From positions 1 to 30,769 of the forward strand of contig CAYXRV010000001.1 of assembly GCA_964466215.1 (NCBI GenBank): DNA of 30,769 nucleotides. The letters run 5' to 3'. A program made the translations under genes and the position numbers. The notes beneath the pieces are model-generated. The model had not been told where the DNA came from, ran no database searches, and was given only the letters and a program-made list of their open reading frames with translations. The stretch comes from an uncultured Candidatus Saccharibacteria bacterium (GTDB lineage: Bacteria > Patescibacteriota > Minisyncoccia > Minisyncoccales > Staskawiczbacteraceae). Position 1 is the stretch's first letter. Every line of letters begins with the position of its first letter. Shown one piece after another: positions 29,304 to 29,836 of the stretch.

Positions 29304-29331
29304 TGGTGGACCCACGGGGAATCGAACCCCG
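29304..29331 (-). other. tRNA 3' fragment (T-arm, acceptor 3' strand and encoded ACCA), Ala-type
   Basis: CGGGG-TTCGATT-CCCCG-TGGGTCC-ACCA. Confidence 0.8.
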
Positions 29332-29356
29332 CCCTTCCCGATGTTCATCGGGACGT
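29331..29356. repeat. 26-bp direct repeat A, containing the palindrome TCCCGATG-TT-CATCGGGA
   Basis: GCCCTTCCCGATGTTCATCGGGACGT, identical to 29695-29720. Confidence 0.9.
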
Positions 29357-29358
29357 TG

Positions 29359-29429
29359 TGGACCTAGCGAGAATCGAACTCGCACTTCTTCCATGCCATG
29401 GAAGCGTCGTACCATTAGACTATAGGCCC
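29359..29429 (-). tRNA. tRNA-Ala(GGC), CCA not encoded
   Basis: GGGCCTA/TAGGTCC acceptor with G3-U70 and A73; anticodon arm CTTCC-ATGGCAT-GGAAG; T-arm GCGAG-TTCGATT-CTCGC. Confidence 0.88.
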
Positions 29430-29683
29430 AATTTTAACTCTTGTTCCGCCACAATACGTTTAATAATATTTCTATTTTTAAATTTTTTTAACTTTTTCTC
29501 CATTTGTTTTGTTTCATGCTCTTGCTTATATTCTTTAGAGAAAACAATTTTTAATGGTATTAAATATTTTAATGACCGCGTCTTTCCTGAATTATGTTCT
29601 ATAATTCGTCTTTTCAGATTATTCGTACTACCAATATAATATCTTCCATTCTTTTCGCTTTGTAAAATATATAAAAAATACAT
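29420..29683 (-). CDS. Small GIY-YIG nuclease
   Basis: YFLYIL...YYIGST.NLKRRI.EHN.G...E..LK pattern; last 10 nt overlap the tRNA 5' end. Confidence 0.88.
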   Translation of the reverse strand: MYFLYILQSEKNGRYYIGSTNNLKRRIIEHNSGKTRSLKYLIPLKIVFSKEYKQEHETKQMEKKLKKFKNRNIIKRIVAEQELKLGL

Positions 29684-29694
29684 ATTATCGCACA

Positions 29695-29784
29695 GCCCTT
29701 CCCGATGTTCATCGGGACGTAATGCCTCCCGACGACAGTCGGGATCCCGATATCCTTATATTTAATAAAAACGGAACATCGGGA
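29695..29784. repeat. Direct repeat B plus two further TCCCGA...TCGGGA palindromes
   Basis: 29695-29720 equals repeat A; TCCCGAC-GACA-GTCGGGA at 29727-29744; TCCCGAT...ATCGGGA at 29745-29784. Confidence 0.85.
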
Positions 29785-29789
29785 GATTT

Positions 29790-29836
29790 ACTATGGTCCC
29801 CTGCTTTGATTATATCTTTTTTCCAAAAATATTCAA
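29790..29836 (-). promoter_or_regulatory. Promoter followed directly by a tRNA-5'-end-like 11-mer
   Basis: TTGAAT (29836-29831), 16 nt, TATAAT (29814-29809); then GGGACCATAGT (29800-29790), 9/11 identical to the tRNA-Ala 5' end GGGCCTATAGT. Confidence 0.55.

Follow-up and report, generated by a model that had tools for sequence, protein, structure and literature searches.

A probable Ssn-like nuclease and hairpin cassette occupying a tRNA-Ala(GGC) gene of a Candidate Phyla Radiation bacterium

A tRNA-shaped shell that encloses a small GIY-YIG nuclease gene, hairpin-forming palindromes and a complete tRNA-Ala(GGC) gene was analyzed on contig CAYXRV010000001.1 of assembly GCA_964466215.1, and the whole stretch of 30,769 nucleotides is referred to as the window. 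The host is a Staskawiczbacteria-like bacterium of the Candidate Phyla Radiation (CPR), and its 374-kb assembly is a fragmented metagenome bin of 63 contigs. G000 denotes the genome of the stretch, G001, G002 and G003 are congeners, G023 and G025 belong to two other genera, and L-numbers are used for loci. The split gene and its insert, the cassette, lie on the minus strand and consist of the following features, in which the nuclease gene is given as an open reading frame (ORF).

29809..29836, minus strand: sigma-70-like promoter-like site TTGAAT-16-TATAAT, 10 of 12 consensus positions matched; its function is predicted.
29785..29800, minus strand: PSIa, GGGACCATAGTAAATC, positions 1-16 of the native tRNA-Ala(GGC), a 5' fragment in which C4 is changed to A, 15/16 identical to the native tRNA of G001.
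29745..29784, minus strand: HP1, a TCCCGAT..ATCGGGA hairpin with a long AT-rich loop, inserted in the D-loop of PSIa; an orthologous copy is present in G002.
29727..29744, minus strand: HP2, the 18-nt palindrome TCCCGACTGTCGTCGGGA, a second insertion in the D-loop; an orthologous copy is present in G002.
29718..29726, minus strand: remaining native D-arm, GGCATTACG, about tRNA positions 18-26, identical to G001.
29700..29717, minus strand: PAL copy 1, TCCCGATGAACATCGGGA, 18 nt, located by repeat and pattern search exactly at the place of the anticodon arm (positions 27-43).
29695..29720, minus strand: direct repeat copy 1 (ACG, PAL and AGGGC, the last being the tRNA variable loop), 26/26 identical to copy 2.
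29331..29694, minus strand: 364-bp unit made up of spacer, ORF, inner tRNA and one repeat copy, an exchangeable module according to its identity profile against G002.
29420..29683, minus strand: ORF for an 87-aa single-domain GIY-YIG protein (Pfam PF01541, E 1e-13).
29358..29429, minus strand: complete inner tRNA-Ala(GGC) with G3:U70 and A73 and without an encoded CCA (ARAGORN; Rfam 62.2 bits).
29336-29353, minus strand: PAL copy 2, located by repeat search.
29331..29356, minus strand: direct repeat copy 2 (ACG, PAL and AGGGC), at a spacing of 364 to copy 1.
29304..29335, minus strand: PSIb, 3' part of the native tRNA-Ala(GGC) with variable loop, T-arm, 3' strand of the acceptor (TGGGTCC), A73 and CCA, 32/32 identical to the tRNA of G002 and 31/32 to that of G001.

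The -10 hexamer of the promoter-like site ends 8 nt ahead of the first G of the shell. The segments 29784-29774 and 29346-29336 form a perfect 11-nt inverted repeat. The palindrome pattern TCCCGA..TCGGGA was matched three times at the locus (0.00 expected) and nowhere else in the 374-kb assembly, which argues against a genome-wide palindrome family. The last 10 nt of the ORF are positions 1-10 of the inner tRNA (29420-29429), and the stop codon of the ORF is the TAG at positions 8-10 (U8-A9-G10). An earlier reading of the DNA from its letters and translations (the sequence-only reading) had named a promoter-like site, hairpins, repeats, an ORF, a tRNA and a T-arm with ACCA, and every one of these was found again. 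A further promoter-like site of the extended -10 type (TGAACA-16-GATAAT) is formed by TGAACA in the PAL loop and the adjoining spacer (TG-n-GATAAT; 29711-29684, minus strand) and ends 1 base before the ATG of the ORF. Transcription from it would start inside the ORF, which suits only a leaderless or internal start.

The same layout was present in a second, independently deposited assembly (GCA_016201585.1; 99.8% identity), and mis-assembly is therefore unlikely. Considering the fragmentation of the bin into 63 contigs, two strain variants of the tRNA-Ala locus could have been joined via the 26-nt repeat, but the arrangement in the independent assembly was identical (4 mismatches and 1 gap in 2850 nt) and analogous split-shell layouts were found in many unrelated assemblies. 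Such an artefact is extremely improbable. The stretch is contained in three groundwater DNA runs.

A DNA search of 60 relatives matched the 3' end of the shell to the 3' half of ordinary tRNA-Ala(GGC) genes. The sequence-only reading had anticipated an empty allele in relatives, and the congeners G001 and G003 carry an intact tRNA-Ala(GGC) gene at the syntenic locus with no GIY-YIG gene alongside. The intact native gene is ordered as GGGCCCATAGTAAATC, GGCATTACG, a normal anticodon arm, AGGGC, T-arm, acceptor and CCA. When HP1, HP2 and the 364-bp unit are subtracted from the window, this native gene is left with two changes: PAL stands in place of the anticodon arm (positions 27-43), and C4 is replaced by A, which creates an A4.G69 mismatch in the acceptor of the shell. 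Both halves are of native type in comparison with G001 and G002, in agreement with the earlier proposal that both ends derive from a single tRNA gene interrupted by an insert. These comparisons indicate that the shell is the host's own tRNA-Ala(GGC) gene split by the cassette, and its ends can therefore pair.

The minimum free energy fold of the RNA from 29800 to 29304 (497 nt; z = -4.65) contained the long-range 11-bp helix, an acceptor-like helix, the T-arm and the inner cloverleaf. Together with G3.U70, A73, the encoded CCA and the recurrence of split-shell layouts at other loci, this fold would suit a functional tRNA- or transfer-messenger RNA (tmRNA)-like transcript of about 500 nt, in which pairing of the ends yields a tRNA domain that accepts alanine, with the palindrome helix in place of the anticodon arm. 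A functional tmRNA-like domain of this kind had been suggested by the sequence-only reading. However, pairing is expected from ends that are halves of one gene, the acceptor carries the mismatch caused by the C4-to-A change relative to the native gene, and the orthologous cassettes of G002, G023 and G025 do not have the 3' half. Rfam returned T-arm fragments of 12-13 bits at the locus and no tmRNA or other extra family, ARAGORN called no tmRNA there, and a canonical tmRNA (ssrA) of G000 was detected on contig C46 (1141-1493; Rfam 120 bits). A functional RNA of this kind is thus very improbable, and the shell folds like a tmRNA as a side effect of the splitting of the tRNA gene. A tmRNA gene interrupted by an insert was also considered and was rejected, as the canonical ssrA is located elsewhere and neither a tag frame nor a model match was found. 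A group I or group II intron in the tRNA, including a group I intron with a homing endonuclease, was rejected since no intron family was matched at E up to 10 in 28900-30100. The tmRNA on C46 was not called by ARAGORN when the whole assembly was run.

The gene for uracil-DNA glycosylase (UDG) follows the tRNA in G000, G001, G002 and G025, and the CTP synthase gene is located further on from the tRNA in G000, G001, G002, G003 and G023. No match for UDG was found in G003 or G023, and the CTP synthase gene of G025 is about 23 kb distant on the opposite strand. This gene order indicates that the tRNA locus is orthologous across these relatives. Homologous cassettes occupy the same locus in G002 (same genus) and in G023 and G025. 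All three are arranged as PSIa with PAL for the anticodon arm, ORF and full native-type tRNA, with the ORF stop being the TAG at positions 8-10 of the downstream tRNA, and PSIb, the 3' half, is missing from all of them. The cassette of G002 is preceded by the same 16-mer as PSIa of G000 (GGGACCATAGTAAATC). In G025 a long-loop hairpin similar to HP1 is located in the T-loop of PSIa, and PAL differs from that of the other cassettes in its outermost pair, which is C..G rather than T..A, so that it is still a palindrome. In G033 a remnant consisting of the last 38 ORF codons precedes an intact tRNA. Thus, relatives carry the locus empty, with a different allele or with a remnant only; the locus is empty in G001 and G003 and occupied in G000, G002, G023 and G025, and the pattern of identities is mosaic. 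No consistent immunising difference between occupied and empty alleles was observed, and the anticodon arm of the G002 tRNA is the same as that in G001.

The sequence-only reading had also claimed that the insert supplies a substitute tRNA. Identity comparisons upheld this claim in that the inner tRNA is real, complete and of a foreign type. It is the sole Ala(GGC) gene in the G000 assembly and is 75-76% identical to the native (shell) type, and no tRNA-Ala(GGC) among the 11 family genomes checked exceeded 82% identity to it. The shell type was found in all of these 11 genomes (G004 and 10 others) and also in G001, G002, G003, G023 and G025. An origin of the inner tRNA as the type native to the genus was rejected, as all those family genomes carry the shell type, and derivation from the tRNA-Ala(CGC) of G000 was rejected at 69% identity. 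The best match to the inner tRNA among 400 genomes of the phylum was a tRNA-Ala(CGC) of another family (88%), and no donor of the inner tRNA and ORF unit was found. PSIa of G025 is of the same foreign tRNA type as the inner tRNA of G000.

The identity of CTP synthase to that of G000 was 90% for G001 and G002, 71% for G003, 66% for G023 and 62% for G025, and the GIY-YIG proteins displayed 68% (G002), 68% (G023) and 71% (G025). In the ORF tree, the congener G002 branched outside a group of G000, G023 and G025 with moderate support (96/64). Compared with G002 segment by segment, PSIa and its hairpins were 88% identical, the spacer could not be aligned, the ORF was 74%, the inner tRNA 75% and PSIb 100% identical. 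The drop in identity starts and stops at the PAL repeats. Because the locus is mosaic relative to G002 and the inner tRNA is foreign, the unit appears to have its own, horizontal history. These alignments make it likely that G000 acquired or exchanged the ORF and tRNA unit horizontally through recombination within the PAL and tRNA repeats, with the tRNA halves acting as homology arms.

A purely local history would require that a tandem tRNA duplication decayed, that the GIY-YIG gene was inherited vertically since the family ancestor and that the empty loci are deletions, with no horizontal movement. It would account for the cassette at the same syntenic locus in three genera and for the HP1 and HP2 insertions in PSIa that are common to G000 and G002 (88% identity), and the direct repeats permit precise deletion. 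However, ORF identity departs from relatedness, with 68% to the congener having 90% CTP synthase identity versus 71% to the genus having 62%. The inner tRNA type was absent from all 11 family genomes checked, the drop in identity is sharp and falls exactly at the PAL repeats, and paralogues with matching pseudo-tRNAs are found at 17 tRNA identities across phyla. A local history is therefore improbable, and horizontal gain or exchange of the unit is preferred.

The Pfam GIY-YIG domain spans residues 1-71 of the 87-aa protein and no other domain was detected. The C-terminal DNA-binding domain of Seg-type homing endonucleases is not present, leaving the catalytic domain only. Searches of PADLOC, PHROGs and NCBIfam gave marginal matches to the N-terminal motif only; the NCBIfam model for group I intron endonucleases covered just residues 3-37 with 24.7 bits against a cut-off of 56. 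Residues Y5, Y16, R26, H30, E62 and K66 were invariant or nearly so in 94 homologues, with Y5 and Y16 in 100% and E62 in 98% of them. The ratio of nonsynonymous to synonymous substitution rates (dN/dS) among the four orthologous ORFs of G000, G002, G023 and G025 was 0.05-0.23, which indicates purifying selection. Based on the dN/dS values and the conserved catalytic residues, the GIY-YIG protein is probably active.

Single-domain GIY-YIG proteins of about 94 aa constitute the Ssn family (CDD cd10448; Chenal et al., 2025, PMC11893778). Binding to a hairpin-forming repeat (NTS/SRM) takes place exclusively when the repeat is single-stranded DNA, and cleavage occurs a few nt upstream of the repeat; ssn genes are typically flanked by the repeat, and the authors compared this arrangement to insertion sequences (PMC11893778). 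The 87-aa ORF resembles the family in being a single GIY-YIG domain of about 90 aa, with Y5, Y16 and E62 corresponding to Y6, Y17 and E64 of SsnA of Neisseria meningitidis. A GC-rich repeat that can form a hairpin (PAL, 29717-29700 and 29353-29336) likewise lies 5' and 3' of its gene, as is the case at many homologous loci, and the hairpin type co-varies with the nuclease clade. A metagenome scan for the exact NTS motif identified three loci (L185, L205 and L224), each with an ORF of about 95 aa bracketed by NTS. These ORFs matched the hidden Markov model (HMM) of our family at 2e-19 to 2e-14, and hhalign gave a probability of 97.4% at 29% identity. The ORF is thus probably an Ssn-like protein, a divergent relative of the Ssn family as judged from its sequence.

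There are also differences. The hairpins of our locus lie outside the published SRM consensus and are few per genome (in G000 confined to this locus) rather than present in hundreds. Moreover, a copy of a tRNA gene here carries the hairpin in place of its anticodon arm, ORF and tRNA gene are fused, and the element brings a spare tRNA with it, while tRNA is nowhere mentioned in the main text of PMC11893778. The sequence-only reading knew of no characterised element with this layout. This did not hold for the combination of a nuclease with cognate hairpin repeats, which is that of the Ssn family (PMC11893778), but it stood for the tRNA-lodged layout, on which no paper was found. A literature search with incomplete journal coverage returned nothing on tRNA-linked small GIY-YIG cassettes beyond the papers on SegB, on CPR rRNA insertions and on Ssn. 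Therefore, the pairing of nuclease and hairpin is known from Ssn, and what was not found published is the tRNA-nested architecture with a travelling spare tRNA.

Paralogues were detected in 40 of 61 relatives, with up to 8 per genome, and a scan of species-representative genomes added 80 further loci from many CPR lineages, Bacteroidota, Ignavibacteriota, Elusimicrobiota and others. Among the 99 unique loci with a complete ORF, 86 had a tRNA on the same strand within 160 nt, and 17 amino-acid identities were represented. The tRNA was downstream of the ORF in 68 loci, and in 27 of these 68 the stop codon was located at tRNA positions 8-12. At most loci the ORF was flanked by pseudo-tRNA pieces of the same tRNA. 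The full split-shell layout, comprising PSIa, the ORF and tRNA in either order, and PSIb, was observed in at least a dozen loci, including L084, L082, L078, L070, L054, L118 and L133, and L096, L124, L132 and L088 in which the tRNA comes first. Each of the split-shell loci carried a perfect palindrome of 16-19 nt exactly at the place of the anticodon arm. Replacement of the anticodon arm by PAL was also seen in G002, G023, G025, L078, L084 and others, and L078 contains the identical 18-mer PAL in a copy of tRNA-Ala(UGC). The co-occurrence of the same palindrome with homologous GIY-YIG and tRNA loci elsewhere, which the sequence-only reading had expected, is thus evident in G002, G023, G025 and L078, for example, and the variable copy number of the unit that it had also foreseen was seen in relatives at L081 and L112. 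L081 contains two tandem units of pseudo-tRNA and ORF, partly masked by N. L112 contains two tandem pseudo-tRNA-Ala units with differing palindromes (TCCCGACGTACGTCGGGA and TCCCGCATGCGCGGGA) ahead of the real tRNA, up to 280 nt before the ORF.

Both the palindrome class (28 changes on the ORF tree versus 48 with shuffled labels) and the tRNA identity (39 versus 69) tracked the ORF clade, although these counts overstate the clustering as related sequences share labels. Copies of the ORF away from tRNA genes (L050, L058, L059, L061, L064 and L065, with the ORF from 1501 onward) were enclosed by inverted repeats of 14-20 nt with a common CCCCGT(T)AGA motif, so that the complete ORF lies within the loop of a long hairpin. 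The 14-nt core CCGATGNNCATCGG was also found at the tips of otherwise unrelated terminator-like hairpins, consisting of a GC stem and a T-run, with no GIY-YIG gene or tRNA near, in relatives (L158, L169, L162, L171, L163, L172, L165, L167 and L173, in each case at about position 1501). Seven copies of this core were present in G025, and a reversed-pattern control gave 0 in all 61 genomes.

Taken together, the native tRNA-Ala(GGC) gene of this CPR bacterium is probably occupied by a small Ssn-like nuclease-plus-hairpin cassette. Mobility of the cassette is well supported by the sequence comparisons. The compact mobile or selfish element with a substitute tRNA that the sequence-only reading proposed is thus retained with respect to apparent mobility and the foreign spare tRNA, but not with respect to the tmRNA-like domain. 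A number of points weigh against this interpretation. The tRNAs offer little length for comparison, and the ORF tree is based on few columns. Precise loss between the direct repeats could equally yield empty alleles, so that gain and loss are not separable. The pseudo-tRNA pieces show 100% identity to the neighbouring tRNA at the majority of the other split-shell loci, which could reflect import but equally a local duplication or gene conversion. In relatives, the majority of the other copies of PAL are at the tips of terminator hairpins, far from any GIY-YIG gene. The published SRM consensus, searched as a regular expression, matched nothing in the window, G000 or 110 loci. The family profile also scored UPF0213 (cd10456) structures at 47-51 bits, compared with 47-63 bits for the NTS-flanked ORFs under a different HMM. 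Finally, cutting by the 87-aa protein and the target of this cutting are predictions from sequence and analogy.

With an Ssn-like cassette, the unit would move or be exchanged by recombination with the tRNA halves and PAL repeats as homology, and the host cell would now rely on the tRNA of the cassette for the GGC anticodon. The native promoter may transcribe the hairpins, ORF and tRNA as one RNA. A cut by RNase P at tRNA position 1 would remove the stop codon of the ORF and generate a non-stop mRNA; synthesis of the nuclease would thereby be limited, a possible built-in limiter. By analogy to SsnA, the nuclease may bind the PAL hairpin in single-stranded DNA and nick a few nt 5' of PAL. We tentatively suggest, with less than even confidence, that such nicks beside PAL at highly transcribed tRNA genes, and their repair, could lead to duplications, arrays and exchanges. 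At the loci inspected, the breakpoints of PSIb were 2-13 nt 5' of PAL, a position that Ssn-type nicking immediately 5' of the hairpin could produce, although it is no evidence for such nicking. It appears unlikely that nicking beside the palindrome is followed by a host repair in which the palindrome takes the place of the anticodon arm and the nuclease gene is copied in with a working tRNA. If it were true, this swap would represent a transposase-free movement specific to structured-RNA genes. It would also carry tRNA genes from one CPR lineage to another, and owing to the spare tRNA the insertion would do no harm and would not easily be lost. A nuclease cutting cassette-free tRNA genes in the manner of a homing endonuclease is rather unlikely, and less likely than Ssn-like nicking.

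The nuclease might instead be a domesticated host factor, acting in Ssn-type restriction of incoming single-stranded DNA or as a modulator of recombination at hairpin repeats. Its placement at tRNA genes would then reflect their strong promoters, and the hairpins would be spread by other means with the ORF as a passenger. In accordance with this, SsnA modulates natural transformation in Neisseria (PMC11893778), the ORF is under strong purifying selection, PAL copies are present at terminator tips far from GIY-YIG genes, and the ORF has no obvious promoter of its own while the native tRNA promoter is located upstream. However, the cassette is patchily distributed in close relatives and is also found as remnants, a genome of about 0.8 Mb may contain as many as 8 divergent copies, the cassette disrupts a gene of an essential type and needs a spare copy, and the PADLOC matches were marginal only. 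We regard a domesticated host factor as quite unlikely in place of a mobile cassette; such a role would also be compatible with mobility.

Among other known systems, SegB of phages T4 and T6 is a free-standing GIY-YIG homing endonuclease in a tRNA gene cluster, and the T-psi-C stem-loop, a conserved motif of tRNAs, is part of the site that it recognises (PMC2330249). As in our locus, a GIY-YIG gene is located among tRNA genes, and SegB spreads together with neighbouring tRNA genes into alleles without it. However, SegB is a two-domain phage protein that cuts double-stranded DNA, it is encoded between tRNA genes rather than inside one, and it has neither a palindrome-bearing pseudo-tRNA nor an overlap of ORF and tRNA. 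The empty and occupied alleles and the mosaic identities of our locus also correspond to the presence/absence polymorphism with co-conversion of flanks that marks free-standing Seg-type endonucleases. SegB is the nearest functional counterpart for spreading with tRNA genes.

GIY-YIG ORFs have also been described in non-intron insertion sequences of 16S and 23S rRNA genes of CPR bacteria (Tsurumaki et al., 2024, PMC11270868). They share the host group with our locus, and small GIY-YIG ORFs lie inside structured-RNA genes at the tips of stem-loops and not in introns. In contrast to our locus, they concern rRNA genes and were placed outside homing by their authors, and PMC11270868 reports no tRNA genes, spare copies or signature palindromes. 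The REP/BIME repeats with RAYT and the IS200/IS605 elements similarly consist of a small nuclease gene bracketed by cognate hairpins, which also have solo copies, and they act on single-stranded hairpins. Their nucleases are HUH transposases with strand-transfer chemistry and without a link to tRNA genes, whereas a GIY-YIG hydrolase cannot rejoin DNA. Islands inserted by integrases in tRNA or tmRNA genes are comparable in that a tRNA gene is the landing site, the insert keeps the tRNA working and a displaced fragment lies at the far end. However, the 364-bp unit encodes only the 87-aa ORF and the tRNA, with no integrase gene, and supplies a whole tRNA rather than a 3' end. Its repeat consists of the middle of the tRNA and a palindrome, not of an att core from the tRNA 3' end.

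If our interpretation holds, Ssn-type pairs, which are known as dispersed repeats modulating transformation, would also exist as compact cassettes inside tRNA genes, and the host would be protected in that such cassettes carry a tRNA or restore one. What most copies cannot show is seen at this locus, namely that its spare tRNA differs from the split native gene (75% versus 88-100% identity). The tRNA therefore appears to travel with the nuclease gene, with exchange breakpoints at the palindrome repeats. The 364-bp unit and its target, a tRNA gene with or without the palindrome, are concrete objects for asking how a nuclease without DNA-joining activity spreads. The locus bears on the horizontal movement of tRNA genes in ultra-small bacteria, and also on tRNA annotation, as pseudo-tRNA halves and nested genes confuse gene callers.

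Two further observations concern variable sequence at or resembling this locus. An ORF of 191 aa (29880-30455, minus strand) is located between the split tRNA gene and sequence that is found within about 100 nt of the tRNA in G001. No Pfam, NCBIfam, PHROG or PADLOC family was matched by it, and among 40 relatives it was represented by fragments in G004 and a weak match in G017 only; it looks like a second indel at a variable locus. In genome G201, locus L149 (1012-1400) contains tandem units derived from tRNA-Pro, the 5' parts of which are replaced by a hairpin-bearing segment. One of these units was miscalled by ARAGORN as tRNA-Ala(CGC), and there was no GIY-YIG gene within 3 kb. The array possibly represents scars of the same process.

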